A stretch of DNA of 64,000 bases from an uncultured virus (IMG/VR IMGVR_UViG_3300027582_000004) (Duplodnaviria; Heunggongvirae; Uroviricota; Caudoviricetes): the IMG/VR virus record IMGVR_UViG_3300027582_000004; one strand, 5' to 3'. The stretch's first letter is position 1; each line of letters begins with the position of its first letter. Both the position numbers and the translations under genes were made by a program. Below the pieces are notes generated by a model, which was given only the letters and a program-made list of their open reading frames with translations, searched no databases and had not been told where the DNA came from. Positions 8,781 to 53,221 of this stretch are shown in pieces.

Positions 8781-8782
8781 AC

Positions 8783-9850
8783 ATGGCGGCAATTAATTTC
8801 CCATCATCGCCATCAAACGGCGCAACACATACTGCTAACAACATAACGTGGCAATATGATAGTGGTAAAGGTGTATGGAGAGCTACCAATTTTGGAGATG
8901 CTCCTCAGGGTAACAAAGGCCAAAAAGGCGAGAAAGGCCAGAAGGGCCAAAAAGGCGAAGTTGGACAAAAAGGTCAAAAAGGTCAGACTGGTAACACTGG
9001 TAGCACTGGTAGCACTGGTGCTAAAGGCCAAAAAGGTGAAGTCGGTAACACTGGTTCAACTGGTTCTAAAGGCCAAAAAGGTGAGATTGGTGCCACTGGT
9101 GCTAAAGGCCAAAAAGGACAAAAAGGTGATACTGGGTCAACTGGTCAAAAAGGTCAAAAAGGTGCTACTGGTAACACTGGTAGCACTGGTAGCACTGGGT
9201 CAACTGGTTCAACTGGTTCTAAAGGCCAAAAAGGTGAGATTGGTGTCTTTGGTGGTGGTACTATTGATATCACTAACGGTGGTGTTTTCTCTAATGCTTC
9301 ATCTAACTGGACTGGTGACCCAGGCACAAAAGGTAAAATTCAATATCACTCAAATAGATGGTACATTGTTGCAGACCAATCTTCAAACAGAATTGTTCAG
9401 TTTAGAAGAAATGGCTCCGATGTATCATATGTTGATAACTCAGGTATCTATCAAGGTACTGCAGCATCTGCTAACTGGTCTGACCTTGCGGAGAAATACT
9501 TAGCTGATACAGAATATGAACCAGGTGATCTATTAGGCATTGGTGGTGACAAAGAGGTTACCAAATGGGAGACTGGTATGCCGATTGCAGGAGTTATATC
9601 TACACTACCTGGGCTTAGAATGAATGTATCAGAAGAAAATATGGAAGATCCTCTGTGGCCATTCATTGCTCTTAAAGGACGTATCCCTTGTAAGATAAAT
9701 GGTACTGCTGAAAAAGGTGACTATATAGTAGCAGATGGTGCTGGTAAGTGTAAAGCAATCCCTGCTTCAAGAGCTTCCGAAATACATTTCTTACATTATG
9801 TTGGTGTGGCACTAGAGGATGGCGAGGGAACAGTTGAGGTTAAAGTATAA
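8783..9850 (+). CDS. Collagen-repeat fibre protein with putative C-terminal intramolecular chaperone, 355 aa
   Basis: N-terminal INFPSSP...WQYD..KGVW; Gly-X-Y tract; C-terminal WSDLAEKY...GVIST.PG...ALKGRIPCK of the fibre autochaperone type. Confidence 0.75.
   Translation: MAAINFPSSPSNGATHTANNITWQYDSGKGVWRATNFGDAPQGNKGQKGEKGQKGQKGEVGQKGQKGQTGNTGSTGSTGAKGQKGEVGNTGSTGSKGQKGEIGATGAKGQKGQKGDTGSTGQKGQKGATGNTGSTGSTGSTGSTGSKGQKGEIGVFGGGTIDITNGGVFSNASSNWTGDPGTKGKIQYHSNRWYIVADQSSNRIVQFRRNGSDVSYVDNSGIYQGTAASANWSDLAEKYLADTEYEPGDLLGIGGDKEVTKWETGMPIAGVISTLPGLRMNVSEENMEDPLWPFIALKGRIPCKINGTAEKGDYIVADGAGKCKAIPASRASEIHFLHYVGVALEDGEGTVEVKV
8909..9244 (+). repeat. Collagen-like Gly-X-Y tract (GQK/GST/GNT units)
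   Basis: Uninterrupted triplets; Y position almost always Lys or Thr; no Pro. Confidence 0.9.
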
Positions 9851-10272
9851 TGCCAACATATGCACAAAATAATAGTAGTTTGCAATCACAGGCAGGTGGC
9901 CAGTTAAGAACCTTTGATAAGACAGTCAACTTTAATGTAACAGCTTATATACTTCAAAGCCCAGGAGGTTCGAATCTGTATCCAGGTGGTACATCATACC
10001 CTTCAGGATTTACCGGTGTGACAGCAACTCAAGCTATAGGTGAACGATTTGAATATACAGGCGCTGCTAATTCATTATATAACAATTACTTAAACGGTAA
10101 TATCTATACAGGTTCGCGTATGTATTCACAGCACGTTATTAATTCAATAACCGATACTATGCAAAGAACAGTTGATCAGATAGAAGGTAGAATAACAAAT
10201 AGAAGTATTAATGGTGTGCTTTGCCATAACTCTTGTCATTCAAGTTGCCATACTTCAAGAGGACGTAGGTAA
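9850..10272 (+). CDS. Putative radical SAM substrate/precursor A, 140 aa, C-terminus CHNSCHSSCHTSRGRR
   Basis: Triple Cys-His-Xaa-Ser repeat at the C-terminus; paralog of the next gene; directly upstream of the rSAM array; TAATG coupling on both sides. Confidence 0.7.
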   Translation: MPTYAQNNSSLQSQAGGQLRTFDKTVNFNVTAYILQSPGGSNLYPGGTSYPSGFTGVTATQAIGERFEYTGAANSLYNNYLNGNIYTGSRMYSQHVINSITDTMQRTVDQIEGRITNRSINGVLCHNSCHSSCHTSRGRR

Positions 10273-10661
10273 TGGGTAATTTATCCAGAGATAGTTTAGA
10301 TAGTTACATGCAAACTTATGCAGGTGCAAGGCTCCGTACATTTGATAAAACTATTAGTATAACTACAACCGTGTATATGGGTTTGGATACTGGCGTAGGG
10401 TTAGGTCAAACTACATCTAATTCTACTAACCATAGGTTTGAATATACTGGAGCTGCTAATAGCTTATTCGATAACTACATTGATGGTGGCGTGAGCGCAG
10501 GATCAAGAATTTATTCACAGGATATTGTAGACACATTAGAGGATGGAGTGAGAAGAACAGTCGATCTAATTGAAGGACGAATGACAGATAGGTCTATATC
10601 TGCTGTATTATGCCATACAAGTTGCCACACAAGCTGCCATTCATCGAGAGGAAGACGCTAA
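10272..10661 (+). CDS. Putative radical SAM substrate/precursor B, 129 aa, C-terminus CHTSCHTSCHSSRGRR
   Basis: Shares LRTFDKT, RFEYTGAANSL, GSR.YSQ, RTVD.IEGR.T.RSI..VLCH with precursor A. Confidence 0.7.
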   Translation: MGNLSRDSLDSYMQTYAGARLRTFDKTISITTTVYMGLDTGVGLGQTTSNSTNHRFEYTGAANSLFDNYIDGGVSAGSRIYSQDIVDTLEDGVRRTVDLIEGRMTDRSISAVLCHTSCHTSCHSSRGRR

Positions 10662-11839
10662 TGACTATGCAAAAATCATATTGTAAACAGATGAGATATT
10701 CTGGACCGGAAAGTCTGGCACCATCTGATGCAACTAAGTTTGATGTATTAATCCAAATGGAAGTATTGTCTGGATGTGAGCAAGGGTGTCTTGGGTGTTT
10801 TGTTGATAAAGCTATTGATCCAGAAGTAAATCAACAAATTATTGATCGAGCTAAAGAATTGGCTGATGGAGTAAAACGAGTAGGAGGTAACCTAAGAGAA
10901 TTTGTTATTGGACCTACTGATTTATTCTCAGCAAAAAATACAAAAGACATCTTAACTAATCCTACTGTACAAGCTATAATGAGAGAACATACAGGAGCAC
11001 GTATTGCTTCTCCTGCTAAGTTTGATAAAGCCTCTATGGAGAAAGTAAGAGAAATATTTGCTATACTAGACGACCTTGATGCATATAGACGTGATATGGT
11101 TATCGAGTTTATTATGCCTGTCGGTCGTATTAATGAGATGTTAGACGACGATGAGTATTATAACTCTGTCATGGAAAAGGTTGAGTTCTTTAAAAACGAG
11201 ACTCCTAAAATGATGGATTGGTCTTGGACTCTACAAGCTTCTAATGTAGTAGGAAAGCAAATAGATAAAGAAAAATATAATAGGATGATTCGACGTTCTT
11301 ATAATGATTATGGAACAATCGTAGAGATGAATCCAGCATTTGCAAGAGCGCCTAATCAGATCATTCAACGTAATAACTTATTTGCTTGGAATAGATTTTT
11401 AGAATCAGTTATCGATGATGAAAATAGTAAAGAGGCTGTTATGTCAATGGCAAATCTTTACTGTAATTCAATTAACTTTGTTGGTATAACTATTGTGCCA
11501 GGAGAACATGGACCTACTACTCATCTAAATGTTATGTTGCACGAACAAGCATTCTTCTTATCTAATAAGAACCTAGATGTAACCGGATTATCTTTTGAAG
11601 AAATCTTACAGCGTAAGAATGAATTGATTACAAAAGGTATAAATAGATCCAGTAAGGTAAAAGATTGCTCTGATTGTAAATTTGCTATCGCATGTGCTAA
11701 TAGATTGGTATTTGAAGCACAAGAAAGTTTAAACATAGACGGGTGTGTACTACCTAAAGAAATCTTGAAGCATTATAATCCATTTGATTTCACCTGGAAT
11801 GATGATGCAACTCAATATAAAATGAAAGACGGAGCGTAA
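10661..11839 (+). CDS. Radical SAM protein 1 (atypical IGPTD clade)
   Basis: CEQGCLGC (CxxxCxxC); IGPTDLF; C-terminal CSDC-x5-C...C. Start moved from 10610 to the ATG overlapping the upstream TAA. Confidence 0.8.
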   Translation: MTMQKSYCKQMRYSGPESLAPSDATKFDVLIQMEVLSGCEQGCLGCFVDKAIDPEVNQQIIDRAKELADGVKRVGGNLREFVIGPTDLFSAKNTKDILTNPTVQAIMREHTGARIASPAKFDKASMEKVREIFAILDDLDAYRRDMVIEFIMPVGRINEMLDDDEYYNSVMEKVEFFKNETPKMMDWSWTLQASNVVGKQIDKEKYNRMIRRSYNDYGTIVEMNPAFARAPNQIIQRNNLFAWNRFLESVIDDENSKEAVMSMANLYCNSINFVGITIVPGEHGPTTHLNVMLHEQAFFLSNKNLDVTGLSFEEILQRKNELITKGINRSSKVKDCSDCKFAIACANRLVFEAQESLNIDGCVLPKEILKHYNPFDFTWNDDATQYKMKDGA

Positions 11840-11841
11840 CT

Positions 11842-12945
11842 ATGATAGGTCAAAATCTTTATTACTTAAATAACACTAAGTATATCTCAACAATAGATAA
11901 CCTAGGTACTGTATGTGGTGAGTTAAATTCATATTATCATACAGGAACTCCTAGAGACATTATCATTGTTAGATCATCTATGGGCGGCTTTCTGGTTGAA
12001 GGTCAATATAATATTATTGCTGAAGGTACAAGAGCAGGTGCTTCTGAGTATCTTTCTTTCATGGACTTTGATGATGTAGATGATATAGACTTTATACAGA
12101 ACAGTGATAAACGTATTATCTTATTCGCAACATCAGGTGATATGATCAAAGTATTTTCAAGATATACTCATGGTTTGTTAACAGCTTCTGGTTTCTATGA
12201 TTCAAGCACTAACATCACAAGCATGGTTGGATCATTTCTTGAGAAAATATTCTCTATGGATACTATGCTAACTATATTAATGAATAGTAATGATCTGAAT
12301 GATGTATCCAATTATGTCGATACACTATTCTCTACAGACTCAGGTGGCGGAGCAGTAACTCCTTATACAGTAGTTTATCAAAATGGTAAGAACTTTAGTT
12401 ATGATCTTTTATTCTGGTTAAATGATTATCATAGAAATGCTTCTGTACAATCACTTATTAAAGAAAAGTTTACGGTACACCAATCTACTATGGCTCAAGA
12501 TGTAATGGAACACTTTACATCAAGACGCCACTATTTGGCATATATTCTTTCTGTTATTGATTGGATGAATGCCAACACAGCACGTAATGCTCAATATGCT
12601 ACAGATAAGACAGCCTTTATTCAAGACTGTTATATCACTAAAGCAAACACTGGTAACTACACCGCAGCCTTTTATCTGTTAGAAGAATTGTGGAATAAAG
12701 TTAAAGCAGACACTGCATTCATTGCCGCACACCAAGATAAGGCAGATAGTGATGCAGATGGTTGGGAATATATGGATCTCTATACAGAGTTTAAAAACGT
12801 ATTTCCTATTGTTCGTAAAGTATTGCAAAATGACTTTGATATGGACAACTTAACAGCTGATCTTAAATTAATTAATACAGATGTTCAGTTTTTCTCTAAA
12901 AGACAGAATCGTATTCCTTATCTTATTCACAAATATCCACTGTAA
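11842..12945 (+). CDS. Hypothetical protein in rSAM cluster, 367 aa
   Basis: Long ORF with GGAG RBS; no recognisable motif. Confidence 0.7.
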   Translation: MIGQNLYYLNNTKYISTIDNLGTVCGELNSYYHTGTPRDIIIVRSSMGGFLVEGQYNIIAEGTRAGASEYLSFMDFDDVDDIDFIQNSDKRIILFATSGDMIKVFSRYTHGLLTASGFYDSSTNITSMVGSFLEKIFSMDTMLTILMNSNDLNDVSNYVDTLFSTDSGGGAVTPYTVVYQNGKNFSYDLLFWLNDYHRNASVQSLIKEKFTVHQSTMAQDVMEHFTSRRHYLAYILSVIDWMNANTARNAQYATDKTAFIQDCYITKANTGNYTAAFYLLEELWNKVKADTAFIAAHQDKADSDADGWEYMDLYTEFKNVFPIVRKVLQNDFDMDNLTADLKLINTDVQFFSKRQNRIPYLIHKYPL

Positions 12946-12959
12946 GAGGAAAATTTATT

Positions 12960-13715
12960 ATGACAACACCTGATATAAGCACTTGTTATGAGTTACCACT
13001 CTCTCCTCAACATCTTGTACAGATATACAAAGATAAAGCAACACTAGAGGATTATGTCCTTTGGGTTGATTATGCTAAAAGTAAAGAAAAACTATCTGCA
13101 CAGCATATCATAATCTATCTGGCTAATACAAACTTTAAGACAACATTTTCTGCTGTAGATGAAGACTTAATTCTGTCTTATATCAAATCAGATTTTATGG
13201 TTGACTGTCCTTTACTATCTAGGATTGTTGTTCTTATTATTAAGTTTTATTATAAACATGATATTACTAAACAAGAAAGCCAGTTGTTGTTTATGTTTCC
13301 TCCTAAACTCATATTTAAGTTTATAGAAGACCATAAAGAATTAGTGGAAGATTTAATTAAGTCTGTTGCTGCAGCAGTTCCTTTTGCTCTGTATAAACTG
13401 TATGAAGGTTTTGATGATGATATGAAAGCAAAGGAAGTTAACCTGGCTGAGCTTGTTAATGATATAACCATACACGATAAACCTGCTATTTGTGGCCCTA
13501 ACATAGCTAGGCTGCTCACTACAGGTTATGATGCTTTACTGTTAATACTTAATAGAGAAGGATTATTCAGAGAGTTTAATAAACAAACCTATAATGATTC
13601 TCCAAAATACTTTGGTAAAGACCTCTACCATATTCTGTGTGAAACTAATCTTACAAAGCAGATAATTGAGTTTTTTCCAGAAGACTTTCTATTGACCCAT
13701 GATAACGAAACTTAA
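12960..13715 (+). CDS. Hypothetical protein in rSAM cluster, 251 aa
   Basis: Long ORF with GAGG RBS; no recognisable motif. Confidence 0.7.
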   Translation: MTTPDISTCYELPLSPQHLVQIYKDKATLEDYVLWVDYAKSKEKLSAQHIIIYLANTNFKTTFSAVDEDLILSYIKSDFMVDCPLLSRIVVLIIKFYYKHDITKQESQLLFMFPPKLIFKFIEDHKELVEDLIKSVAAAVPFALYKLYEGFDDDMKAKEVNLAELVNDITIHDKPAICGPNIARLLTTGYDALLLILNREGLFREFNKQTYNDSPKYFGKDLYHILCETNLTKQIIEFFPEDFLLTHDNET

Positions 13716-14721
13716 TAGTACATATGCTGGTTATTATAAGTATGATGAAGAAAAATCTCCAACCAACATAGATTTTTTAAGAACAGAAATTAATCTGGAC
13801 ATTCTACATGGTTGTAGTCAAATGTGCCCAGGTTGTTTTATTCCTAGAAAGAATTTAACCAAAGCAGATAACTTAGAAACACTTTATAATCTATTAATTG
13901 AAGGGGCTTATCACCCTGACGAAATTACTATTGGTCCAACAGACATCTTTGATGCAGAGAACTTTAGTGAGATTATGAATCACCCATATATGGAAAAACT
14001 ATATGGTATATCTGGTGTAGGATTTACATCAACTCTATTACAACCATATTCTGAAGTTAAAGAAAAACTTGCAAAGATATGGTCGTTATATAAAAATATA
14101 CATCGTGTACCTGATATTGATTTTAAGATAGTTTTAGATATAGATAAGTACCTTGACAATGATTTGGACGAGTGGTACAAGAACCTCGAGCTGTTCAAGT
14201 ATGGTTCTGTACAGTTTAGAGTAAACTATCATAAAGATGTGTTTAAAAGAATTGGCTATAATGATTTATGTCAAAAAGTATTTGATGACTTTAATGCACC
14301 AATTATTATTACACCATCATTCTTAACAGATAGAAATGCTCGTGGTAAAGTAGATCAGCATCTTGCTAACTTTAGACGTGATATGATAGAGCAAAAGATT
14401 GACGATAAGTGGCTAAATTTATATACATTCTTTGATGCTAAATTTAATGGCTATGGTTGCCAGAATTATAGTTTCTATAATAATAAACTTTATATCAATC
14501 CGTTTTTGTATGATGTAATTATACAAAGGACACCACAGTTTGAGACAACTATGGATAATAATACACTATATGATAATATAGATTATGCCCAACAAGTAGA
14601 TGACTGCAATGGTTGCCAATATATGATGAGTTGTGCTGAGCGTAATATACACCTTTATATGGAGTCACGAGGTTTAGAAAACTGTGTTGCCCTTAAAGAG
14701 TATATGTATGCCTCTCATTAA
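13699..14721 (+). CDS. Radical SAM protein 2 (IGPTD clade)
   Basis: CSQMCPGC; IGPTDIF; C-terminal CNGC-x5-C...C. Confidence 0.8.
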   Translation: MITKLNSTYAGYYKYDEEKSPTNIDFLRTEINLDILHGCSQMCPGCFIPRKNLTKADNLETLYNLLIEGAYHPDEITIGPTDIFDAENFSEIMNHPYMEKLYGISGVGFTSTLLQPYSEVKEKLAKIWSLYKNIHRVPDIDFKIVLDIDKYLDNDLDEWYKNLELFKYGSVQFRVNYHKDVFKRIGYNDLCQKVFDDFNAPIIITPSFLTDRNARGKVDQHLANFRRDMIEQKIDDKWLNLYTFFDAKFNGYGCQNYSFYNNKLYINPFLYDVIIQRTPQFETTMDNNTLYDNIDYAQQVDDCNGCQYMMSCAERNIHLYMESRGLENCVALKEYMYASH

Positions 14722-15871
14722 GAACAATTTATATTACGAACTTACCACAGAGACACAGACAAAGCCAGTATCTGCAGTAAAGATACAGCTTGATGTATTA
14801 GATGGTTGCCATCATAAGTGCCCTGGTTGTTTTGTACATCGCAGAGGTAATGCTAGTGATGAGCATCAGTTAGATAAAGCAAAAGACTTTATAAGAAGCA
14901 TTACAGATCAAGGGATCTTGGTTGATGAGATGCTTATTGGTCCGACTGACTTTCTTGCATCAGAAAACTTCTATGAAGTGATGCCACATCTTGAAGATAT
15001 TATCAACGAAAATAGCCCTATTCTTGCATTCGTATCTACTCTTATCGATGGTGACTTAGAAAGGTTTGTTAAATATATTAGCAATAATATTAATATAGAT
15101 ACTGAAATAGAAATAGGTATTGCTACTAACCCTTATAATTTCTTTTCTATACCATACCTTGAGAGAACTAAAAAGGCATTAGCATACCTTGATGAGAATT
15201 TAGAACACGAAATAACATACACATTTGTAATTAATATACGTGACTATAACTTAGACTATGCAGAACTTCATGCATATGCAATAGATAAGTTTGATACAAT
15301 CTTAGACTTTGTACCATCGGTATCTAGGTCCCATAAAGCACATATCATACTTGCAACATTGGATAAGTTTAATGAATATTTTAATGTATTAAGTAGAGAT
15401 AGCACTCTTAATAATATAATGATAGACCATTCACACGCTGGTATGAATTATACAGTTCTTAACTATAAGAAAGGCGAATGGTACCTAAGCCCCTTTATGT
15501 ATGAAAATATGGCAATCTATGACGATATGTTTAAAGTAGATAGCCTTGCAGATGCTACCAGAATAACAGAAGAACAAATAGAAAGAGCAAAGGGTACCGA
15601 ATGTGAAGAGTGTCCTATGTTCTTCTCTTGCTATAATAGAAAGATTATATCACTTAGGGATTATCTTGGTGTAGATAGATGTATTGCTCCTAAAGAGAAT
15701 ATGTTAAATAATATACATAACTATAATGGACCAGCTCAGACTATGTATGAGTGGGATGGATATTCTGTAGAGAATGACAAGAATGGTTATAGAAAGAAAT
15801 TTTTAGTAACCAAAGATGATGACCCAGAATTAGAAAGATTAAGGAATATTTCATATGTTAGTAAAACCTAA
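14708..15871 (+). CDS. Radical SAM protein 3 (IGPTD clade)
   Basis: CHHKCPGC; IGPTDFL; C-terminal CEEC-x5-C...C; probable start ATG at 14708. Confidence 0.8.
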   Translation: MPLIKNNLYYELTTETQTKPVSAVKIQLDVLDGCHHKCPGCFVHRRGNASDEHQLDKAKDFIRSITDQGILVDEMLIGPTDFLASENFYEVMPHLEDIINENSPILAFVSTLIDGDLERFVKYISNNINIDTEIEIGIATNPYNFFSIPYLERTKKALAYLDENLEHEITYTFVINIRDYNLDYAELHAYAIDKFDTILDFVPSVSRSHKAHIILATLDKFNEYFNVLSRDSTLNNIMIDHSHAGMNYTVLNYKKGEWYLSPFMYENMAIYDDMFKVDSLADATRITEEQIERAKGTECEECPMFFSCYNRKIISLRDYLGVDRCIAPKENMLNNIHNYNGPAQTMYEWDGYSVENDKNGYRKKFLVTKDDDPELERLRNISYVSKT

Positions 15872-16049
15872 GCGAGTGATGATCGACCCACCTAACGGAT
15901 GGCGATACGGCTTTCCTAAGATGCTACCTTTAATTCCAAAAGAAGGTAAGAATTTTAAATTAAAAGATTGGTTAATTCAAGAGGGTTATCCACCACACGA
16001 AATAATGGACAATCCCAACTTTGCTTGTAGGATGTGGGAAACCGAATAA
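15855..16049 (+). CDS. Small hypothetical protein, 64 aa
   Basis: Fills the gap between two rSAM genes with overlapping stop/start; contains DPPNGWRYGFPK. Confidence 0.6.
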   Translation: MLVKPKRVMIDPPNGWRYGFPKMLPLIPKEGKNFKLKDWLIQEGYPPHEIMDNPNFACRMWETE

Positions 16050-17203
16050 TGTTAACTGATGAATGGAAAAATATTGTAACCAAAGGCCACAGGCTTGAGG
16101 AGTTTACTTCTGTATCTTCCATGACTCAATATAAAATACAAGTGAATCTTGAAATACTTGAGGGCTGTTCTTATATGTGCCCTGGTTGTTTTGTTAAACG
16201 TAAAGGTAATTGGAATCCAAACTCAATCGCAACGTTTCATTCCTTGGCGTATGAACTAAAAGATAGAGATGATATTGTACTAGACGATATAGTAATTGGT
16301 CCAACTGATTTCTATGGCGCACAGAACTTAGAAGAAATTATTAATAATCAAAGACTTGCTGATGCTATATCAATGATACCTAAGGATAATAGAAACATTC
16401 AGCATAACTGTTCTATACTTGGATCATTATCTGAAAAGGATATTGAGGGTAAGATAAAAGCTATTGAAAATTCGCCACTGGGTAAAGCCGTTGAAGCATG
16501 GGATGTGCAAATTGCTTTAGATTTAAATAGACTAATGAATGATCAAAAATACCTAGACGCACTTGATAAAAGGGTCAATACTTTTAAGAATAGTTCCTTA
16601 AACTTTGAGATTAGTATGGCCACTAATATTGTACAAGGCGTAGAGGATATAATATATGAAGCTATAGAATTTGTTAGAACTAGGTATGAAACTGTTATTG
16701 AAGTATTGCCATCAGTAGTACGTTCGTTTAACCACAGCGCAAAGCATGGTAACAAACTATTTGAATGGAATGAAATGCTTAGTAAACTATCAATAGATAC
16801 AAAAAGGTTTAAAGAAAAGTTTCATTTCTTGCAAGGTGATGTATCACATAAAGTATTCCATTATGCTGTACTGAGCATATATCATGGTGATATGTATTTG
16901 TCTCCGTTTGTATATGAGAATGCTCAAATACACACAGATGATTTTAAAGTTGATAATGGTTGGCTTTGGTTACCAGATGCTGATATATCAGATTATATAT
17001 TAAACAAGAAGAATGAAATTGTACAGAGACAGATTAAAGAAAGCTCTGATAAAGAATGTGGTTCTTGTAAGTATTTAAATATATGTGCAAACAGAATGGT
17101 TCCAATGATTATGGATACAGTATTCAAAGGAAGAAAAGAATGTATTCTTAATAAAGAAGTTATAGAACTATTTGATGATGAGATATATCGTGGGTGTAGT
17201 TAA
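16049..17203 (+). CDS. Radical SAM protein 4 (IGPTD clade)
   Basis: CSYMCPGC; IGPTDFY; C-terminal CGSC-x5-C...C; TAATG-coupled start at 16049. Confidence 0.8.
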   Translation: MLTDEWKNIVTKGHRLEEFTSVSSMTQYKIQVNLEILEGCSYMCPGCFVKRKGNWNPNSIATFHSLAYELKDRDDIVLDDIVIGPTDFYGAQNLEEIINNQRLADAISMIPKDNRNIQHNCSILGSLSEKDIEGKIKAIENSPLGKAVEAWDVQIALDLNRLMNDQKYLDALDKRVNTFKNSSLNFEISMATNIVQGVEDIIYEAIEFVRTRYETVIEVLPSVVRSFNHSAKHGNKLFEWNEMLSKLSIDTKRFKEKFHFLQGDVSHKVFHYAVLSIYHGDMYLSPFVYENAQIHTDDFKVDNGWLWLPDADISDYILNKKNEIVQRQIKESSDKECGSCKYLNICANRMVPMIMDTVFKGRKECILNKEVIELFDDEIYRGCS

Positions 17204-18305
17204 GGATAATAGACAACAGGCTGTAAACTATCACAAAGACTTTGATGTGGGAGTTGGAGACGGGCACGAGATAAAAGTCCTATTTAATTGTGAGATATTA
17301 TCTGGCTGTGAGTTTAAGTGCAAAGGGTGTTTTGTAAATAAAGCTGGTAGTAATATCGGATCTTTTGATAGATTAAATAATGCTATTGATTTATTTAATA
17401 CCAATGGATACAGAGTATCTACTATTAATATAGGACCTTCTGACCTATTTGGTAATAACAATATTAAACAGCTATTAAATGATAGCGTATTCAGAGAAGC
17501 GTTATCGAAGTGCTCCACCATAGAATTTGCTACAACGTTGGAGAATGTTGACGAGGAAGTAATAGAGTTACTTAACACCATACCTAAGATAGACGGGTTT
17601 ATGTATGACATAAATGTTATAATAGATCCATATAAATTTGTTGATAATAATCAGTATAGGTCTTGGTTAAAGGAAGCTATTAATAAAATAAACTTATTTA
17701 CTCACGATGCTGATTATCATATACAAATGAATATGGGTAATGATGATAAGATTAATAAACGTATTGTGGAAATGTGTTACATAGTAGAGGATGAGTTTGA
17801 TTCTATATTCATACTTAACCCTAGTTTCTTTAGAGCCAGAAAGAGTAAAACTCATAAGCAGCTTATAGAGAAATGGAGTAAGACTCTAAAAGAAGAATGG
17901 ACTGATAATCATACTGAAGTCTTTCCTCTTACTATAGCTGATCAAGCACAAGGAGGTTCTTTAGAACTTAACTTCACATACTGTAATGAGAACTTTTTCT
18001 GGACACCGTTTGTATATAATATTGTTATGATTGGTACAGACGAGTATAAAGTACAAGATGAAAATGATATCAATTCTTGGACACAAGTTAAAGAAAATCA
18101 ATTCTTAAAACAATTAACATATTCAAATCAGACTAGCGAATGTAGTGGATGTGATAATATACTTACATGTATTGATAAAGGTGTTTTAAGTTATATGGAA
18201 CATCATATGCTAACCGATTGTGTATATCCATCTAAAAATCTAAAGAGTGTATCTAATAATAAAAAAGTTTCTTTAACGACTGGGTTTGAATTTAAGGCAA
18301 ACTAA
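17190..18305 (+). CDS. Radical SAM protein 5 (IGPTD clade)
   Basis: CEFKCKGC; IGPSDLF; C-terminal CSGC-x5-C...C. GTG start at 17190 inferred because MGVVKDN aligns with the paralog's MGIITNN. Confidence 0.8.
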   Translation: MGVVKDNRQQAVNYHKDFDVGVGDGHEIKVLFNCEILSGCEFKCKGCFVNKAGSNIGSFDRLNNAIDLFNTNGYRVSTINIGPSDLFGNNNIKQLLNDSVFREALSKCSTIEFATTLENVDEEVIELLNTIPKIDGFMYDINVIIDPYKFVDNNQYRSWLKEAINKINLFTHDADYHIQMNMGNDDKINKRIVEMCYIVEDEFDSIFILNPSFFRARKSKTHKQLIEKWSKTLKEEWTDNHTEVFPLTIADQAQGGSLELNFTYCNENFFWTPFVYNIVMIGTDEYKVQDENDINSWTQVKENQFLKQLTYSNQTSECSGCDNILTCIDKGVLSYMEHHMLTDCVYPSKNLKSVSNNKKVSLTTGFEFKAN

Positions 18306-19321
18306 TGGGTATTATAACTAATAATAAATCAGCAGCACAGGCTGACAAAGACTTTGACCTAACCTTTAGAAAAGGTCATGAAGTTAAAGTACAGTTTAAT
18401 TGTGAGATATTATCTGGCTGTGAATTTAAATGTAAGGGTTGCTTTGTAAATAAATTAGGAAGTAATGTAGGTGAATTTGATAAACTAAATGATGCCATTG
18501 ACTTATTTAATAATGAAGGTTATAGAGTATCAACAATTAATATTGGTCCTACTGACCTGTTTGGTAATAACAATATAATTACTTTACTACAAAATGAAAC
18601 CTTTGTAAAGTGTTTATCGAAAGTTTCTACTATACAATTTGTTACTACTCTTGAGAATATTAATTACCAAGTTATTAAACTTCTGAACGATATTCCTAAG
18701 AAAGATGGTTTTATGTATGACTGTAATATTGCTTTACAGCCACCTGTAGACTGGGATAGGATGGAGGAAAGATTAGAGTTATTAAACGACTTTAAAGATG
18801 ATCTAAATTATTATTTTGTCTATAATATGGGTAACGATGATGAGTATAACAGTGAAGTATTGGCTATGAACTACCTAGCAGACCTTCGCTTTGATACTAT
18901 AATACAACTTAATCCCTCATTCTTCCGTGCTAAGAAATCTAAAGTACAAAAGCATCTTATTGAGAAATGGAAAGGCTATGACTTTTCTGACGATCTATAC
19001 CCTAAAACAATTGTAGATAAAGCACAGGGCGGAAGTCTTGAACTTAACTATACGTTCTGTAATAATAGATTTTTCTGGACTCCATTTGTATACGACATTG
19101 CCTTAATCGGTACAGAGGAGTTTGAAGTAAAAGATGTAAATGATATAGACAGCTGGATAGTACCAAAGGATATACAGTTTACAAAGCAATTACGATATTC
19201 AAGTAAAGCGGATAACTGTTCTACTTGTTCTAATCTAATGACTTGTATTGATAAAGGTGTGCTATCTTATATGGAGCATCACTCACTTACAGCGTGTGTT
19301 TTTCCTGGAGTCTTTTCATAA
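18305..19321 (+). CDS. Radical SAM protein 6 (IGPTD clade; close paralog of protein 5)
   Basis: CEFKCKGC; IGPTDLF; C-terminal CSTC-x5-C...C. Confidence 0.8.
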   Translation: MGIITNNKSAAQADKDFDLTFRKGHEVKVQFNCEILSGCEFKCKGCFVNKLGSNVGEFDKLNDAIDLFNNEGYRVSTINIGPTDLFGNNNIITLLQNETFVKCLSKVSTIQFVTTLENINYQVIKLLNDIPKKDGFMYDCNIALQPPVDWDRMEERLELLNDFKDDLNYYFVYNMGNDDEYNSEVLAMNYLADLRFDTIIQLNPSFFRAKKSKVQKHLIEKWKGYDFSDDLYPKTIVDKAQGGSLELNYTFCNNRFFWTPFVYDIALIGTEEFEVKDVNDIDSWIVPKDIQFTKQLRYSSKADNCSTCSNLMTCIDKGVLSYMEHHSLTACVFPGVFS

Positions 19322-20379
19322 TTAAACCCTGTGATTAGATTTTGTCCAGTTTTATCCATATAGTTAAACCACATTCTCATAATACAATCTGGTAAATCTC
19401 TTTCACGGTTCTTCCAATCCCATTGTGTATAGCAACGGAATCCACATTTATTCCACCACTTACAAGACAGACAACCATTCTCGTCCATATATGCTTGCAT
19501 CATACCAGCATTATCTTTACGTTCATACTTTGTATTAAAGTCTCTCTGATCGTATCTATCCCACCTACAGTTTGATGTAGAGTTATCAGGAAAGATGGTA
19601 ACCTTATTAAGAGCCAAACAGTGCATATGATTACTCTCGTTATAGATCAGATCCTTAATAGGATTTATATCCGGATAGTTATGATATACAAACTTTAAGA
19701 ACTCAAGGTACTTACTATCAGATGGAATCATATAGTCATAACCACGATCTGGAATATAATCGTCAAAGTAGAAGTTATCAAACTTTTCATATAGGTAATG
19801 GAAATACTCATCATCATCTGCCATAAATTTCTCAATGGAGATAGTTGTTGCAACCATATTGATAGATGTAATATAATCTGCAAAGTGTTCTATGTTCTTA
19901 CCATAAGGTCCTTTGACTGGTCTACCATCAAAGTCATATGAGCAAATAATATAAGATGGTATATCTACAGCATTTAGATCATCAAGTAATTTCTGTACTC
20001 TATCTCTTTTACTGAACTGAAAAGAAGTAACCCAAACAACTTTAATATTTTGTTTATGTTCGTCAAACATTTTCTTAATAGCAACCAGAAAGTCGTAGTA
20101 CACTGGATAAGCCCATTCAGATATTCTATCTTGGAACAACTCACCACCTACCATGTTAATCTGAATAGTGTCTACTCGACCTTTCATCTTAATAACATGT
20201 TGCTCAACTAAATCTAATTTTGAGAATATTTCTTCACGTGATAAACCTACTGTAGATTTCTTATCGTGGTGACAAAAAGAACAGTTAAGATGACAATTTT
20301 CAAACAGCGTTAGTTCTATCTCAGCGATGTCTGGTCGCTTAGATTCAAGAAGCAGTTTGGTTGTGTCAAAGTTGTCCAA
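19279..20379 (-). CDS. Radical SAM protein 7 with SPASM-like C-terminus
   Basis: CHLNCSFC; VGGELF; CLSCKWWNKCGFRC. Confidence 0.85.
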   Translation of the reverse strand: MDNFDTTKLLLESKRPDIAEIELTLFENCHLNCSFCHHDKKSTVGLSREEIFSKLDLVEQHVIKMKGRVDTIQINMVGGELFQDRISEWAYPVYYDFLVAIKKMFDEHKQNIKVVWVTSFQFSKRDRVQKLLDDLNAVDIPSYIICSYDFDGRPVKGPYGKNIEHFADYITSINMVATTISIEKFMADDDEYFHYLYEKFDNFYFDDYIPDRGYDYMIPSDSKYLEFLKFVYHNYPDINPIKDLIYNESNHMHCLALNKVTIFPDNSTSNCRWDRYDQRDFNTKYERKDNAGMMQAYMDENGCLSCKWWNKCGFRCYTQWDWKNRERDLPDCIMRMWFNYMDKTGQNLITGFNYEKTPGKTHAVSE

Positions 20380-20767
20380 TCAACATTTCCTCTTTATAGT
20401 ATTCGTATATGTCTGGTACCATACCTTTAGATTCGTTCCATTCCATTTTATCTAATATAGCATCATATGTTTCTTCATCTTGCCAGTAAGGTACAAAGTG
20501 TGGATCATTATTAAAAAGCAAGTCTTCGTCATTAAGTGCATGATAAAATGGTTCCTGAAAATCATGACCAAGCCAGTATGCATAGCATATAGCAACTACA
20601 TAAGATTTGGCTGGATATATCCACTCATCAACATACTGAGTAAAATGTTTAAGAGCATCTTCAACTACAGTATTAGGTCTCCAAACAGTTTCTATGTTAG
20701 TCAGATCATCCTTAAAAAGAGATGCCGTCATGTGGTATGCCGCTTGTCTGGCTTTCCATTCTTTCAT
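20366..20767 (-). CDS. Hypothetical protein in rSAM cluster, 133 aa
   Basis: ORF overlapping both rSAM neighbours on the same strand; aromatic/acidic; no motif recognised. Confidence 0.65.
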   Translation of the reverse strand: MKEWKARQAAYHMTASLFKDDLTNIETVWRPNTVVEDALKHFTQYVDEWIYPAKSYVVAICYAYWLGHDFQEPFYHALNDEDLLFNNDPHFVPYWQDEETYDAILDKMEWNESKGMVPDIYEYYKEEMLIGQL

Positions 20768-21662
20768 AATATTCTAATAATCCTTTATATCCATTACAAC
20801 TGTTTGTTAAATCTTTTACATAACGATAATGTTCTGTTAGACAATTACCATAGTATTTACACTTTTTACATATATCTGATAGATTTTTTTCTGGTTCTTC
20901 TTTTGCCCATTGTTTGTATTCGTGATACGAATCGTACTCTTTAAAGTATTCTTTATCGTACTGGTCAAATTCTAATACACCAAATTTACCAGATGGTGTA
21001 ATATACACATGGTCATTAGAGAATGCATCATATTCTCTATCTATACTCCTGTAGATATTGTGAATATTTTGAAAGTCAAAATTCTTAGCTGTCTTGGCTT
21101 CATCAAACCTAATTACAAAGTCCTCAAAGTCTTTATGGGTAACAGGGTGAGCATTTGCTTGGTTAATAGAGTAAGGCTTGATTTCTACAGAAGTCACGTT
21201 GTAAATCATATTAAGTGTAAAGACCATGAACTCAACATCCATTTCTAAAACTTTAGGCGATGCTAAGATAAGAACAGAAATTTCTTTATCAGTCTTCATC
21301 ATATTATCTAATACAAATTGTTCTTTCTCGCGAGCATGAAAGTCATATGATACAGATAAAGTCACATCTTCATCACGGAAGAAATCTGGAAAGGCAGATA
21401 GATTTGTATTAATATTAATTGGTCCGTCATAGTATGTACGAATAACGTCCTTAATAGAATAATAATAATCTGAAGAAAGTAGACCTATTTCACCACCATA
21501 TAAATCAACGTGACTAATAGGATCTGTTATTTGTTGCATCGAGTTGTGTAACCACAATGGTGTTATCTTATGTCTATCGCCTAGCTGAGCCTCTGTTAGA
21601 TAGCAAAAGTCACATCTAAAATTGCAATAGTAAGTTGGATTAATGGATAGATTCATCGACAT
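20712..21662 (-). CDS. Radical SAM protein 8
   Basis: CNFRCDFC; YGGEIG; C-terminal CKKC-x5-C...C. Confidence 0.85.
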   Translation of the reverse strand: MSMNLSINPTYYCNFRCDFCYLTEAQLGDRHKITPLWLHNSMQQITDPISHVDLYGGEIGLLSSDYYYSIKDVIRTYYDGPININTNLSAFPDFFRDEDVTLSVSYDFHAREKEQFVLDNMMKTDKEISVLILASPKVLEMDVEFMVFTLNMIYNVTSVEIKPYSINQANAHPVTHKDFEDFVIRFDEAKTAKNFDFQNIHNIYRSIDREYDAFSNDHVYITPSGKFGVLEFDQYDKEYFKEYDSYHEYKQWAKEEPEKNLSDICKKCKYYGNCLTEHYRYVKDLTNSCNGYKGLLEYYERMESQTSGIPHDGISF

Positions 21663-22677
21663 ATGGTGTCACTCCATCAGGGCTCATTCCGTTTATCTCA
21701 AGTATGCGAGGGGCTAATGTTTTCATCTGCTTACAGTGATCCTCTACAATACCTTCTCTTTTCATATCTCGCACGGTTTTCTTACAGCCATTACATATTT
21801 CAAACATAGGACAAGTATAGCAAGCCATTTTCATAGTCTGTATATTAGGATCATCTTGAAGAGGTGTCTGCATCTCACCATTCATCTCAGTCTCAAAATC
21901 AATAGGATAATCCATATCATCAGCAAAAGAGCCACAAGAGTAATAGTCACCACCTGGGTTCATAGCTCTAATACCCGTATCACATAATCTATTCTGAGGG
22001 CAAGATGTTGCTGATCCACCGAGGCGTTTCATCATTTGCTTTGTATTATATTCGTGATCTGCTAATCCCATATCATATATTTTAATATACGTCTCGTATA
22101 TCTTAGATAGTCGATATGTGGTACCTTGCACACCAGAAGCCATAGCATAATTTAATTTACACTCAACACCCATTTCTTTTGCTAACTCAACATTCTTAAT
22201 AGCAAGGTGTTCGTTCTCATCTGTTATGACGGCAATAAAGTCTGGTCTTTCTCCAGTATGTTTAAGCATAGCATTAGATACCATCCAGAAATCACTCTCA
22301 GTAAATTCTGAATAGTCACCTTTTAATCTACCACCACCATATTGAAATGATGTAGCACAACCAAATCTTTCATTCTGAAATATAGGAAGCCATTTCTCTG
22401 GTCGCATTAAGAAAGGCCATAAATTAGATGTAAAAGATATAGATGCTTTATAATCATGCTCATCTAAGTGGTCGATTAGTTCTTGATACCATTCTGGTTT
22501 GACCATAAGAGGATCGCCACCATTAACAATAATGGTATTGCAATCTGGCCATCTTTCAAGAAACTTGTAGATATAGTTTAAGTCTAATAAACCAACCTCA
22601 TTAGGATCGATATCAGTAGACGAACAGAAAGTACATTTAAAGTTACAAGCCTCTGTTGGTTTTACAATTAGATCCAT
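21640..22677 (-). CDS. Radical SAM/SPASM protein 9
   Basis: KPTEACNFKCTFC; NGGDPL; CPQNRLC...YSC...CYTCPMFEICNGC...C. Confidence 0.9.
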   Translation of the reverse strand: MDLIVKPTEACNFKCTFCSSTDIDPNEVGLLDLNYIYKFLERWPDCNTIIVNGGDPLMVKPEWYQELIDHLDEHDYKASISFTSNLWPFLMRPEKWLPIFQNERFGCATSFQYGGGRLKGDYSEFTESDFWMVSNAMLKHTGERPDFIAVITDENEHLAIKNVELAKEMGVECKLNYAMASGVQGTTYRLSKIYETYIKIYDMGLADHEYNTKQMMKRLGGSATSCPQNRLCDTGIRAMNPGGDYYSCGSFADDMDYPIDFETEMNGEMQTPLQDDPNIQTMKMACYTCPMFEICNGCKKTVRDMKREGIVEDHCKQMKTLAPRILEINGMSPDGVTPYVDESIH

Positions 22678-23699
22678 TCTTTTTCTTTCGCAAGTTTCAT
22701 CATTAAAGTTTTAGGAGCAGGGCATACATCATCCATCCATACTAGCTGATGACAGTCTGAATGGCAATACATAAACACAGGGCAAGAATAACATCTTGGA
22801 TCACGCTCATGTTGTTCACACGAAATAATTTCCATACGTTTAGGGCTTAGTCTTACTTCTTTTGCTGGAGTATCTATATGTCCATAATGCATAGTAGGTG
22901 CTGTATTAGGGCAACCTGCTACTGTACCATCTGCATTTATGGTATGTATCTTTTGCTCACAATCACGACAGAACGTACCTATTCTAAATTGCCCTGCGCT
23001 AAACTTCTCATATACAGATTGCATAAAACCATTTTCAACTGGATGGTTTTCAGTCTGCTCATGCATTAACATCCACCAATCATCTAAATCTTTATTATGA
23101 GGAAAAATATCTGTATTGATAGTAGCGTTACCATCATGAGTTAGCCTCTCATATGATATTTCTCTTATGCCTAGCGAATGCATATAGTCTGCAATATCTA
23201 TAGGCTGTAATTTTATAACGTCTTTAGATACAGATATAAAGCATTTTAGAGAATGGCCAAGTGATGTGAGATGCTTAACATTATTCTCCCACATCTTTCT
23301 TTGATGCTCATTAGTAAAACGTATGTTAGGATCCCATGACGTACCTATATTACCGCCTGTGATAACCTCATCAAAGAACGCTAGTTTTTCTTCTGTAAGT
23401 TTAAAAACAAGGTTAGTGGTTATACCATGAGTAGCCCTATCACCCCATTGTGCTTTTGTTATATCATGAAACTCACGTAGGTTTGCCATAGGAGCCAACA
23501 TAGGCTCACCACCATGATATTCTAAATGTATAAGGTTATCGCCTGTGTCTAATTCATTACACCAGTTAGCTGTTTTAACATGATCAAAGTAAATCTTTCT
23601 ACCATTCATACCAGATGTAAAACAATGGGCGCAATTTAGATTACAAGTTTCAGTCGTTTTTATGTATACTACTGAGTGTGTTTGTGTCGTTAATGCCAT
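22668..23699 (-). CDS. Radical SAM/SPASM protein 10
   Basis: KTTETCNLNCAHC; HGGEPM; CRDC...GCP...CYSCPVFMYCHSDC...C. Confidence 0.9.
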   Translation of the reverse strand: MALTTQTHSVVYIKTTETCNLNCAHCFTSGMNGRKIYFDHVKTANWCNELDTGDNLIHLEYHGGEPMLAPMANLREFHDITKAQWGDRATHGITTNLVFKLTEEKLAFFDEVITGGNIGTSWDPNIRFTNEHQRKMWENNVKHLTSLGHSLKCFISVSKDVIKLQPIDIADYMHSLGIREISYERLTHDGNATINTDIFPHNKDLDDWWMLMHEQTENHPVENGFMQSVYEKFSAGQFRIGTFCRDCEQKIHTINADGTVAGCPNTAPTMHYGHIDTPAKEVRLSPKRMEIISCEQHERDPRCYSCPVFMYCHSDCHQLVWMDDVCPAPKTLMMKLAKEKEWI

Positions 23700-24120
23700 A
23701 ACTGTATGTTAATGCCTTCTCATAATTTATTGCTCTATGTTCTACACCAGCTCTCAAAAACATATTTTGACCTGGGCTCATATGATATTCACCGTTGAAT
23801 GTTTCAATACATTTGGATCCGTCTATAACTTCTATTATAACATTAACCGGATCAGAGTGTAATGGGAAAGTAGGTCCACCTGCTGGCGAATAAAATATAT
23901 GTATAGTACCATTTTCAATATATTTAAACTGCTCATAACCTTCTATCTTAATAGTGTCATCACCGCTCATCCACAGGTCGGTTATTTTACCTCTGTAGGC
24001 CCATATATCTGTTTGTTCTATATATCGTTGTCTTTGATGTTCATCTATAAAAGATACCAAGCATTTTTCAAAACAATCTTCTGACAACAGAAATTCGTAA
24101 AATTCATCAAATGATTTCAT
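23650..24120 (-). CDS. JmjC/cupin-type Fe(II)/2OG oxygenase-like protein
   Basis: FPLHSD (HxD)...GSK...EHRA motif set; probable start ATG at 24120. Confidence 0.6.
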   Translation of the reverse strand: MKSFDEFYEFLLSEDCFEKCLVSFIDEHQRQRYIEQTDIWAYRGKITDLWMSGDDTIKIEGYEQFKYIENGTIHIFYSPAGGPTFPLHSDPVNVIIEVIDGSKCIETFNGEYHMSPGQNMFLRAGVEHRAINYEKALTYSYGINDTNTLSSIHKND

Positions 24121-24185
24121 AATAGCCCTTGTTAAGTACATTATATATACCATTATATATACAGATATAATATGAGGAATGCGAA

Positions 24186-24752
24186 ATGGTTTTAATTGAT
24201 AACCTATGGCCTACACAAATAGGTAGCGGTAAGTTTGACACTACAGGATTAGTAGAACATATATTCACCCATCACAATATGTCTAATCCTCCGAATGATC
24301 TCAGCGGATATAATATATTAGATGATGATAATAGTGAAGTAATGAATAAATTTAAAAGCACCGCATATGATTGCTTTGATTCATACTTAACTAAAACAAT
24401 AGGTCGTCCTATTAGTGATTGGAATAACTATAGTCTCAAGGGGTGGCTTACTGGTCAAGGTAAACACTATAGTATGGCTAAACATAATCATGCTGGGTGT
24501 CAACTATCTGGAGTATTTTATATACTAGCAGAAGATCAAACCTCTGGAGGAGAGATAGTATTCTCTGATCCTAGATCAAATTGCAACAGAGGTTATGATC
24601 CTTATTTTAAACCAATGTTTGACAATCATATACATGCTCCGAAGACAGGGGACTTTATGATCTTTCCGAGTTTTACTTATCACGCCGTTAATCCATTCTT
24701 CTCAGAACTAAGAATATGCATGCCAGTGGATCTGTTTCTTAACAGACAATAA
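24186..24752 (+). CDS. 2OG-Fe(II) oxygenase superfamily protein
   Basis: HNH..QLSGVFY...F.DPR...IFPS...HAV.P...R motif pattern common in marine phage oxygenases. Confidence 0.8.
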   Translation: MVLIDNLWPTQIGSGKFDTTGLVEHIFTHHNMSNPPNDLSGYNILDDDNSEVMNKFKSTAYDCFDSYLTKTIGRPISDWNNYSLKGWLTGQGKHYSMAKHNHAGCQLSGVFYILAEDQTSGGEIVFSDPRSNCNRGYDPYFKPMFDNHIHAPKTGDFMIFPSFTYHAVNPFFSELRICMPVDLFLNRQ

Positions 24753-48759: not shown

Positions 48760-48826
48760 TATAAATACTATTGTAGTGCCGTAAGGGCTACGAATCATTC
48801 TTGCTGTTAAAAGGAGAAAAAATATG
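48760..48826 (+). promoter_or_regulatory. Late promoter plus ROSE-like RNA thermometer leader of hsp20
   Basis: TATAAATA 48760-48767; GTAA-loop hairpin 48773-48791; TTCTTGCT (48798-48805) pairs with SD AGGAGAA (48812-48818), leaving a bulged G. Confidence 0.6.
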
Positions 48827-52900: not shown

Positions 52901-53178
52901 TTAAACAATGGCATCACGACCGCAATCTAATTGAGGGTTCTACTGATAAAGATCAGTACCTTAAACTTATACAAGAGGCTGGTGAACTATCAGATAGCAT
53001 CTGTAAGGGTAAGGATATCCGTGATGATATTGGTGATATGATGGTGGTTCTAATTAACATTATGGCTCGTAATGAGTTATCTATGGATGAATGTCTACAA
53101 GTAGCATATGATGATATCAAAGACCGTAAGGGTAAAATGATTGATGGCGTTTTTGTGAAAGAAAGTGATTTACAATAG
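52867..53178 (+). CDS. MazG-like NTP pyrophosphohydrolase
   Basis: KLIQEAGEL; DDIGDMMVVL; AYDDIKDRKG. Start uncertain. Confidence 0.75.
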   Translation: METHLENLVELIKQWHHDRNLIEGSTDKDQYLKLIQEAGELSDSICKGKDIRDDIGDMMVVLINIMARNELSMDECLQVAYDDIKDRKGKMIDGVFVKESDLQ

Positions 53179-53197: not shown

Positions 53198-53221
53198 GGT
53201 TTTATATATTATGGAGTACAC

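Follow-up and report, generated by a model that had tools for sequence, protein, structure and literature searches.

A conserved cassette of radical SAM enzymes and oxygenases linked to CHxS-tailed proteins and fibre genes in phages and Bdellovibrionota contigs

The DNA analysed was a 64,000-nucleotide stretch of the uncultured virus IMGVR_UViG_3300027582_000004 (IMG/VR; Caudoviricetes), referred to below as the window; all positions are those of the whole stretch. Positions 9850 to 24752 hold an island in which two small proteins ending in (CHxS)3RGRR (tail proteins 1 and 2) are encoded together with ten predicted radical S-adenosylmethionine (SAM) enzymes, a cupin, a 2-oxoglutarate (2OG)-Fe(II) oxygenase and several other proteins. 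The island is one copy of a conserved cassette, whose fairly probable role, in our view, is the enzymatic maturation of the C-terminal tail on a small folded protein of the virion that is associated with the fibre.

The tail proteins and their cassette

All open reading frames (ORFs) named in the original prediction, which had been made from the letters of the window alone, were found in place. Tail protein 1 (140 residues; 9850..10272, plus strand) ends in CHNSCHSSCHTSRGRR (nucleotides 10222-10269) and its paralogue, tail protein 2 (129 residues; 10272..10661, plus strand; 51% identity), in CHTSCHTSCHSSRGRR (nucleotides 10611-10658). They follow the gene for collagen-like fibre protein 2 (355 residues; 8783..9850, plus strand; Pfam Collagen E 1e-18), whose last ~130 residues form a conserved autochaperone-like domain. 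TAATG stop/start overlaps, read directly at 9848-9852, 10270-10274 and 10659-10663, chain this fibre gene, both tail genes and the first enzyme gene, E1. The ORF of E1 opens at 10610, and the third overlap makes 10661 its likely start. One metatranscriptome contig of 1,946 nucleotides runs from the end of the fibre gene through both tail genes into E1, and metatranscriptome contigs from four runs in three studies span much of the island; contigs from RNA libraries, this one included, prove neither transcription nor expression level.

A word-indexed search returned 142 homologues of the tail protein. Among the 120 listed, all end in CHxSRGRR and 113 in the exact (CHxS)3RGRR, so the tail is not a chance motif. 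The family was extended by an exhaustive profile search to 789 clusters at 50% identity (485 of them with E <= 1e-10), and the end (C[H/N]xx)3R.RR was found in 139 of the 146 new cluster representatives listed. When 140 sequences were aligned, identity to tail protein 1 of the window dropped as low as 16%; the Cys and His of repeats 1 and 3, the Cys of repeat 2, and R137, R139 and R140 (three of the four residues of the C-terminal basic motif) were invariant. The fourth position of the repeats is mostly Ser, sometimes Asn or Ala, and the basic end reads R-G/S/N/A-R-R across homologues. Six CHxS repeats were seen in the tail protein of a contig from a Firmicute isolate (Dysosmobacter, L173) and four in that of a Bacteriovoracia metagenome-assembled genome (MAG; L169).

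The tail is preceded by a conserved folded domain of 110-280 residues. In the AlphaFold2 (AF2) model of tail protein 1 (mean predicted local distance difference test score, pLDDT, 81) a helix/beta-hairpin/helix domain was predicted with confidence (>90 at residues 1-30 and 60-120) and the tail region with a pLDDT of 54-62; a low-confidence loop at residues 38-45 coincides with insertions of up to ~100 residues in homologues. As modelled, the tail protein combines a folded body with an end that is flexible and invariant, and does not have the build of a leader-core peptide. Because the substrate is of this kind, the original description of it as RiPP-like (RiPP, ribosomally synthesised and post-translationally modified peptide) stands as an analogy and not as membership. 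No clear match to the model was obtained in fold searches of solved structures (Foldseek best E 0.94; VIA best Z 6.3, root-mean-square deviation 3.2, 72 residues aligned). One homologue of 453 residues (P0141) is a fusion of the tail protein to a Gly-rich N-terminal region of ~270 residues, of a type known from phage fibre proteins; this natural fusion may point to the partner structure.

The core of the cassette consists of a fibre gene with an autochaperone-like C-terminus, the cupin, radical SAM families A to D, the tail protein, two or three unknown proteins and the 2OG oxygenase. A further, radical-SAM-like family, E, is optional and lineage-expanded, being missing in many loci, present in one or two copies in jumbo-phage-like loci and in five or six in T4-like loci (six in the window). 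When 80 viral-contig loci were fetched with the tail as anchor, every one carried at least one gene of families A-E, and 31 carried all of A-D within the fetched stretch; the remainder would have the longer, window-like layout or be short contigs. With enzyme A as anchor and loci ranked by a distant A, in whose lineages the tail gene is adjacent, a tail ORF was found in 76 of 80, and the four loci lacking it stop 0-293 bp past A. When ranked by the A of the window, 15 of 80 loci had the tail and two more (L162 and L163) a variant tail, CHYSCFTSSCHFSRGRR; 63 of these 80 were unable to show a tail, as A lies 12-13 kb from the tail genes, past the 10-kb flank, or the contigs are short. Enzyme arrays without CHxS proteins, set beforehand by the original prediction as the finding that would speak against it, were not found wherever sequence extended far enough.

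Neither Megablast of the island nor tblastn of tail protein 1 matched the cultured-phage collection, and the link to cultured phages was obtained through enzyme A and the tail protein of Ralstonia phage RSL2. Homologues of A (36-44% identity) were found in 15 cultured jumbo-phage records, with Ralstonia, Burkholderia, Agrobacterium, Sinorhizobium and Pseudomonas as hosts; a cupin gene usually adjoins. The same gene set is present in RSL2, in phage Atu_ph07 and in Bdellovibrionota contigs, and in most other lineages A adjoins the tail gene. The RSL2 genes are, in order, ORF066 (cupin), ORF067 (A), ORF068 (a 186-residue protein ending in CHSSCHTSCHGSRGRR), ORF069 (an unknown protein of the V360 family), ORF070 (U251 family), ORF071 (E-type), ORF072 (D-type), ORF075 (B-type), ORF076 (2OG), ORF077 (C-type) and ORF081 (U133 family). 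A dihydrofolate reductase gene and the hypothetical ORF074 (ORF073 and ORF074; L003:9941-11090) lie between the D-type and B-type enzymes.

Linkage to fibres was likewise seen outside the window. Of the 17 loci mapped in detail, 14 have immediately ahead of the cassette an ORF that ends in the C-terminal domain of fibre protein 2 (~130 residues); the N-terminal parts of these ORFs, 154 to 2,037 residues long, are wholly different. Its profile weakly matches the autochaperone of phi29 gp12 (E 8e-4), and scores of 17-24.5 bits against Peptidase_G2 (cut-off 25) were obtained for five of the 11 sequences scanned, namely the window fragment and four of ten fibres from related loci. This likeness to the phi29 gp12/tailspike autochaperone (Peptidase_G2, PDB 3GQH) belongs to the C-terminus of the upstream fibre, not to the tail protein, and lies under the curated threshold.

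Enzyme families, partner proteins and related systems

Ten radical SAM enzymes had been proposed for the island. The CxxxCxxC motif was found in all ten, and the four minus-strand enzymes, A-D, match phrog_1802 ('radical SAM domain-containing protein', E 2e-19 to 8e-57), whereas the six plus-strand enzymes, E1-E6, are assigned by their motifs. Enzyme A (22668..23699) is the best conserved and carries a SPASM domain (TIGR04085/PF13186; 29.5 bits, cut-off 27) with eight conserved C-terminal Cys. Enzyme B (21640..22677) exceeds the gathering cut-off of Pfam Radical_SAM (PF04055, 29.5 bits) with 31.7 bits; A, C and D stay under it (18.9, 21.9 and 17.8). B and D have seven or eight conserved C-terminal Cys in a SPASM pattern, seven in D (19279..20379; phrog_1802 E 2e-19), and the SPASM score of B, 21.5, is under the cut-off. 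Enzyme C (20712..21662; phrog_1802 E 1e-31) has, like family E, four C-terminal Cys (Cx2Cx5C...C), leaving room for one auxiliary cluster. Alignments of 81-87 sequences each for families A, B and D keep the CxxxCxxC motif; ORF starts are ragged in the C alignment, hence its column there falls under the 93% threshold. Each of the four families also keeps a GGE-type SAM-binding motif: HGGEP in A, NGGDP in B, YGGE in C and GGE in D.

Among curated families the best rows for A and B were PapB, CbpB, DynA, DarE, AmcB, anSME, HxsB and HxsC, with DynA and anSME the best NCBIfam rows for B; all scores were far under the cut-offs. MoaA and NrdG scored lower than these peptide- and protein-modifying SPASM families, the opposite of the cofactor- or nucleotide-modifying affinity that the original prediction had listed as counter-evidence. 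The solved relatives scoring best for A were 8VPO (a radical SAM protein), anSME, 5WGG (deposited as 'radical SAM domain protein', which we take to be CteB) and ChlB. As no arrays lacking the tail were found where sequence extended far enough, and given these affinities, the proposal that the CHxS-tailed proteins are the target of a dedicated pathway of post-translational modification is supported. Modification of DNA or nucleotides as the role of the enzymes was rejected on account of the tight link to the tail protein and the same affinities.

The E genes, all on the plus strand, are E1 (10661..11839), E2 (13699..14721), E3 (14684..15871), E4 (16034..17203), E5 (17172..18305) and E6 (18305..19321); a C-terminal Cx2Cx5C...C pattern accompanies the CxxxCxxC motif in all six. 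The motif is invariant in the family, and GPTD stands where the other families have GGE. One of the six, E3, matches Pfam Radical_SAM (E 7e-5, 23.5 bits, under the cut-off of 29.5), and E5 matches RSL2 ORF071 and its relatives by tblastn (22-24% identity). The six copies share ~20% identity with one another, except for E5 and E6 (59%), and a search of solved structures with the family profile gave no match.

Two further oxidative enzymes complete the set. The cupin (23650..24153, minus strand; Cupin_2 E 8e-6, under the Pfam cut-off) keeps its HxD...H triad and one Lys in at least 93% of 78 aligned sequences (77 members and the window cupin as reference) and is probably an Fe(II)/2OG oxygenase; the other (24186..24752, plus strand) matches 2OG-FeII_Oxy_5 (PF13759, E 4e-13).

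Unknown proteins accompany the enzymes. U251 (12960..13715, plus strand) recurs in every cassette lineage examined, an iterated profile having found it in 127 loci, including RSL2 ORF070, Atu_ph07 gp169 and Bdellovibrionota. Its AF2 model (mean pLDDT 90) had no fold match (Foldseek best E 0.63; VIA best Z 4.9), and profile searches of solved structures gave no useful match for it or for U133. U133 (20366..20767, minus strand; phrog_20737 E 2e-36) is a conserved partner protein found in 114 loci. U367 (11842..12945, plus strand), present in 73 loci and only in the T4-like form of the cassette, had no Pfam, NCBIfam or PHROG match, and the protein atlas gave no lead for U367 or U251. In non-T4 loci its position is taken by the V360 family (~355 residues); homology of U367 and V360 was not supported (hhalign probability 23%). 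A small ORF, U64 (15855..16049, plus strand), was found in six loci.

Strict RiPP features were sought among the island ORFs with Pfam, NCBIfam and PHROG scans: no protease, exporter or immunity gene was recognised, in agreement with the absence of exporter and leader peptidase noted in the original prediction. The cluster motif of the enzymes starts at residues 11-29, which leaves no space for an N-terminal leader-binding domain of the size of a RiPP recognition element (RRE); an RRE hidden in U133, U251 or U367 is possible.

Several known systems were compared with the cassette. The anaerobic sulfatase-maturating enzyme anSME (TIGR03942; PDB 4K36-4K39) resembles A and B in being a radical SAM enzyme of the SPASM type that lacks an RRE. 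Its target is a Cys or Ser within a protein, and among solved structures it is one of the closest to A (E 6e-9). The scores of B (38.3 bits) and A (28.5) fall far from its cut-off of 349, and its target motif, C/S-x-P/A-x-R, is absent from the tail. PapB (NF047865), the best NCBIfam row for A (E 1e-10; 41.5 bits, cut-off 340), and 5WGG are SPASM-cluster enzymes that make thioethers in Cys-rich cores at the C-terminus; the known ranthipeptide and sactipeptide systems differ in that their substrates are short leader-core peptides, an RRE takes part, and a protease or exporter usually belongs to the set. None of these was found in the island. With the triceptide synthases (XyeB, YhhB, FxsB and AmcB; His-linking HtkB and HaaB) the common feature is the aromatic-x-X form of the H-x-S in the tail. 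AmcB, YhhB and FxsB were among the weak NCBIfam matches (best AmcB, 31.7 bits for A, against cut-offs of 370-450), and His-cross-linking enzymes are known (excerpt of PMC11499958).

A further parallel is the anti-phage system HXS (effector HxsA, radical SAM enzymes HxsB and HxsC, and HxsD). According to the part of PMC13128918 used, HxsA carries HxS repeats, owes its maturation to radical SAM enzymes and acts at the entry of phage DNA. Both systems have a protein-sized HxS-repeat substrate, more than one radical SAM enzyme and small partner proteins, and in both the product would remain a protein and act outside the cytoplasm. The cassette differs in having a Cys in each repeat, repeats at the extreme C-terminus before R(G/S)RR, and at least four radical SAM families together with oxygenases, in a setting of fibres of phages and predatory bacteria rather than of a periplasmic defence effector. 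Of the profile checks advised by the original prediction, SPASM in A and Radical_SAM in B passed their cut-offs, whereas the Hxs families were not reached: A scored 30.0 bits against HxsB (TIGR03978, cut-off 370), B 23.4 against HxsC (TIGR03977, cut-off 267.9), and none of the 140 tail proteins listed any Hxs family of NCBIfam at E <= 0.1.

Virion presence and competing explanations

A virion proteome of Atu_ph07 is available as Supplementary Table S5 of PMC6102473, of which the continuous portion from Gp57 to the end was used. Gp170 (31.89 kDa) is listed there with eight unique peptides and 35% coverage in bands 1-9, with its peak in band 1; Gp176 (66.07 kDa) with 14 peptides and 36% coverage in bands 1-7 (peak band 4); and Gp177 (21.66 kDa) with two peptides and 11.6% coverage in bands 1-4 and 6-11 (peak band 11). 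The computed masses of the three (31.89, 66.07 and 21.66 kDa) equal those listed. Gp170 is the 296-residue homologue of the tail protein, ending in ...CHSSCHASCHNSRSRR, and gp176 is a fibre with a window-like C-terminal domain. This portion of the table has no entry for the radical SAM enzymes gp165, gp168 or gp171, for the cupin gp172, or for gp169, the U251 homologue. The original view that a virion or fibre component is likelier than a secreted antibiotic is borne out to this extent, the tail homologue and the adjacent fibre being in virions and the enzymes not listed. We consider the tail protein most likely to be a fibre-associated virion component. That gp170, at 32 kDa, peaks in the uppermost band of the gel hints at a high-mass species that is covalent or withstands SDS.

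Three features make the tail the leading substrate candidate: its invariance amid drift, its place on a flexible end, and its tight co-occurrence with enzymes whose types modify proteins and peptides. In the proposed course of events both tail proteins would be made together with the collagen-like fibre by translational coupling, and their flexible, invariant (CHxS)3-R(G/S)RR ends would be processed inside the infected cell by three enzymes with full SPASM-type auxiliary clusters (A, B and D), by C with its single one, and by the cupin and 2OG-type oxygenases, assisted in the window by the six accessory E-type enzymes, with U251, U133 and U367 acting as putative adaptors. As no RRE precedes the cluster motif and no protease or exporter was recognised, the product would probably stay protein-bound, to be assembled into the particle on or near the fibre. 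Judged from sequence, the enzyme types would allow thioether formation at the three Cys, C-C links of the His-x-Ser type, conversion of Cys to an aldehyde, and hydroxylation. The likeliest chemistry would be Cys-derived thioether links, His-x-Ser-type C-C links or oxidations, singly or combined, and the outcome a rigid, cross-linked tail end, possibly metal-binding or covalently anchoring.

A number of observations count against this course of events. No modification of the tail has been observed anywhere, and the Cys/His-rich tail could be a metal or cluster ligand instead of a substrate. The Atu_ph07 preparation was purified with polyethylene glycol, and the same portion of the table also lists RecA-like protein, single-stranded DNA-binding protein, terminase and topoisomerase (PMC6102473); with such probably non-structural proteins in the list, presence in the virion is no proof of a structural role. 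The identity between gp170 and tail protein 1 is only 32%, over residues 68-140, and the fold of the N-terminal domain, matching nothing known, gives no independent hint of a fibre role. RSL2-type loci and two other mapped loci have no recognisable copy of the fibre C-terminal domain; autochaperone-type C-termini are common in fibres, and the adjacency could partly reflect a variable structural region. For family E, 7 of 25 members reached E <= 0.01 against Pfam Radical_SAM (best 23.5 bits, under the cut-off), and hhalign gave a probability of 12.6% for homology with A.

The foremost alternative takes the tail to be a Cys/His metal- or Fe-S-binding module (scaffold, chaperone, electron carrier or metal-binding part of the fibre), with the enzymes acting elsewhere, for example on the fibre. 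Three Cys-His pairs make a plausible ligand set, no mass shift is known, and in most loci the fibre gene is linked to the cassette as tightly as the tail gene is. This explanation nonetheless appears unlikely to us. One would not expect to meet a helper protein in virions when the enzymes it serves are absent, as they are from the Atu_ph07 list from Gp57 onwards, and the mostly Ser position and the C-terminal R(G/S)RR, whose conservation is as strong as that of the Cys and His, suit recognition by an enzyme better than metal binding alone. The fibre is also a difficult target, its N-terminal parts differing wholly between lineages and its common C-terminal domain resembling a self-cleaving chaperone.

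That the tail is cut off as a free peptide natural product or a peptide-derived cofactor, as with pyrroloquinoline quinone and mycofactocin, and acts in the infected cell or on competitors, we hold to be improbable. SPASM enzymes and C-terminal cores are typical of such pathways, as general knowledge and the family scores indicate, and the cassette has many tailoring enzymes; against this stand the lack of any recognised protease, exporter or immunity gene in the island, enzymes without an RRE-sized N-terminal extension, a conserved, folded N-terminal domain with a lineage-variable loop, and the presence of gp170 in virions with 35% coverage (PMC6102473, portion used). Less credible still is a counter-defence or decoy function, in which the modified HxS tail would mimic or block a host effector of HXS or a similar envelope barrier at DNA entry: HxsA is indeed matured by radical SAM enzymes and acts at that step (PMC13128918, part used), and a virion-borne protein would be on hand there, yet neither enzymes nor tail proteins belong to the Hxs families, and the cassette is also found on bacterial-looking Bdellovibrionota contigs beside fibre-like genes.

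An extension of the maturation hypothesis, which we put forward as doubtful, is that the modified (CHxS)3 tail anchors the small protein in the fibre assembly, by cross-linking or by locking through a metal, and that the attachment fibres of predatory Bdellovibrionota use it too, so that phages and these predators would share one system for maturing an adhesion organelle. Cys-derived aldehydes or thioethers might react with the Lys-rich collagen-like fibre; a covalent anchor would explain why the Atu_ph07 homologue peaks in the uppermost band.

The known targets of tailoring by radical SAM enzymes are secreted peptides, cofactors and sulfatases, joined of late by an anti-phage effector of bacteria. 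If tail maturation proceeds as proposed, four to ten dedicated radical SAM enzymes would be at work on part of the virus particle, which would put this chemistry to a new use and amount to a new kind of virion maturation. The tail family is large, spans unrelated phage lineages and predatory bacteria, and has several cultured carriers, so that the proposal is directly testable. Individual genes of the cassette are listed in genome papers (excerpts of PMC8066314 and PMC11898562), and a marine T4-like genome with 12 radical SAM genes was noted without explanation (excerpt of PMC5332604); the cassette may explain the dozen such genes in some marine T4-like phages. Radical SAM genes of RP12/RP31 have also been listed (PMC5468394), and the cassette was not found in these phages by the cultured-phage searches made here. 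A full-text literature search returned no description of the tail protein, the cassette or the virion link.

Gene neighbourhood and bacterial copies

The window belongs to a T4-like myovirus. Its neck, sheath, tube, portal, protease, scaffold, capsid, helicase and polymerase genes match T4-type PHROGs, and its major capsid protein has 71% identity to that of Phage C48C1 and 61-64% to those of Methylophilales, Pelagibacter and Synechococcus myophages. The fibre block opens with collagen-like fibre protein 1 (566 residues; 7080..8780, plus strand; Pfam Collagen E 1e-12, tail-fibre PHROGs). The island had been placed between the fibre genes and gp13; fibre genes do precede it and a gp13-like gene (phrog_211, E 2e-38) starts at 26733, but a previously unmentioned PLOD-like gene (24764..26692, plus strand) intervenes. 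Its product has GT25 (PF01755, E 1e-22) and PLOD GT (PF25342, E 7e-47) domains and a C-terminal dioxygenase-like region. It is probably a modifier of collagen lysine and part of the neighbouring context, outside the cassette core. Collagen-like fibres with a PLOD-like enzyme beside them fit a block devoted to fibres and their modification. A PLOD-like gene also adjoins the cassette in the related loci L087, L162 and L163. The two collagen-like fibres of the window (7080-9850) are rich in G-x-K triplets, and together with the PLOD-like gene they look like a phage system for hydroxylation and glycosylation of collagen lysine.

A scan of one genome per prokaryote species gave 13 loci, 10 of them with the tail protein and cassette enzymes. 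Two of the ten are on T4-like phage contigs that had been binned into a Rhodobacteraceae MAG, one is on a short contig from a Dysosmobacter isolate in culture, and seven come from Bdellovibrionota MAGs. The pathway had been called phage-encoded, which holds for many viral contigs, but the cassette is not confined to phages. The Bdellovibrionota contigs reach 299 kb and carry ABC transporters, a phosphonate-binding protein, FabH and an AMP-binding enzyme in the flanks. The 299-kb contig looks chromosomal because its ABC ATPase genes, at least five, are spread along its length; a prophage-like island is a possible setting for the cassette there. Loci L174-L176 contain no cassette genes and are probably chance pattern matches.

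Other genes were noted beside the bacterial copies. In loci L166-L172 several Peptidase_S74 fibre-chaperone proteins of ~340 residues adjoin the cassette (for example L171:17582-18628 and L170:4409-8151), and one Peptidase_S74 protein beside a Bdellovibrionota cassette bears a pilin-type N-terminal methylation motif. B12-binding radical SAM genes are present in the same Bdellovibrionota loci.

Two features of the window lie away from the island. On the plus strand (52175-54163 and 57200-59583), the gene for a TET-associated glycosyltransferase (PF20691, E 3e-43) has phosphomannomutase-like, UDP-glucose dehydrogenase-like, epimerase and cytidylyltransferase genes on its flanks, which suggests sugar hypermodification of the phage DNA. 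A small heat-shock protein of the Hsp20/alpha-crystallin family is encoded at 48824-49294 (plus strand), amid replication genes.

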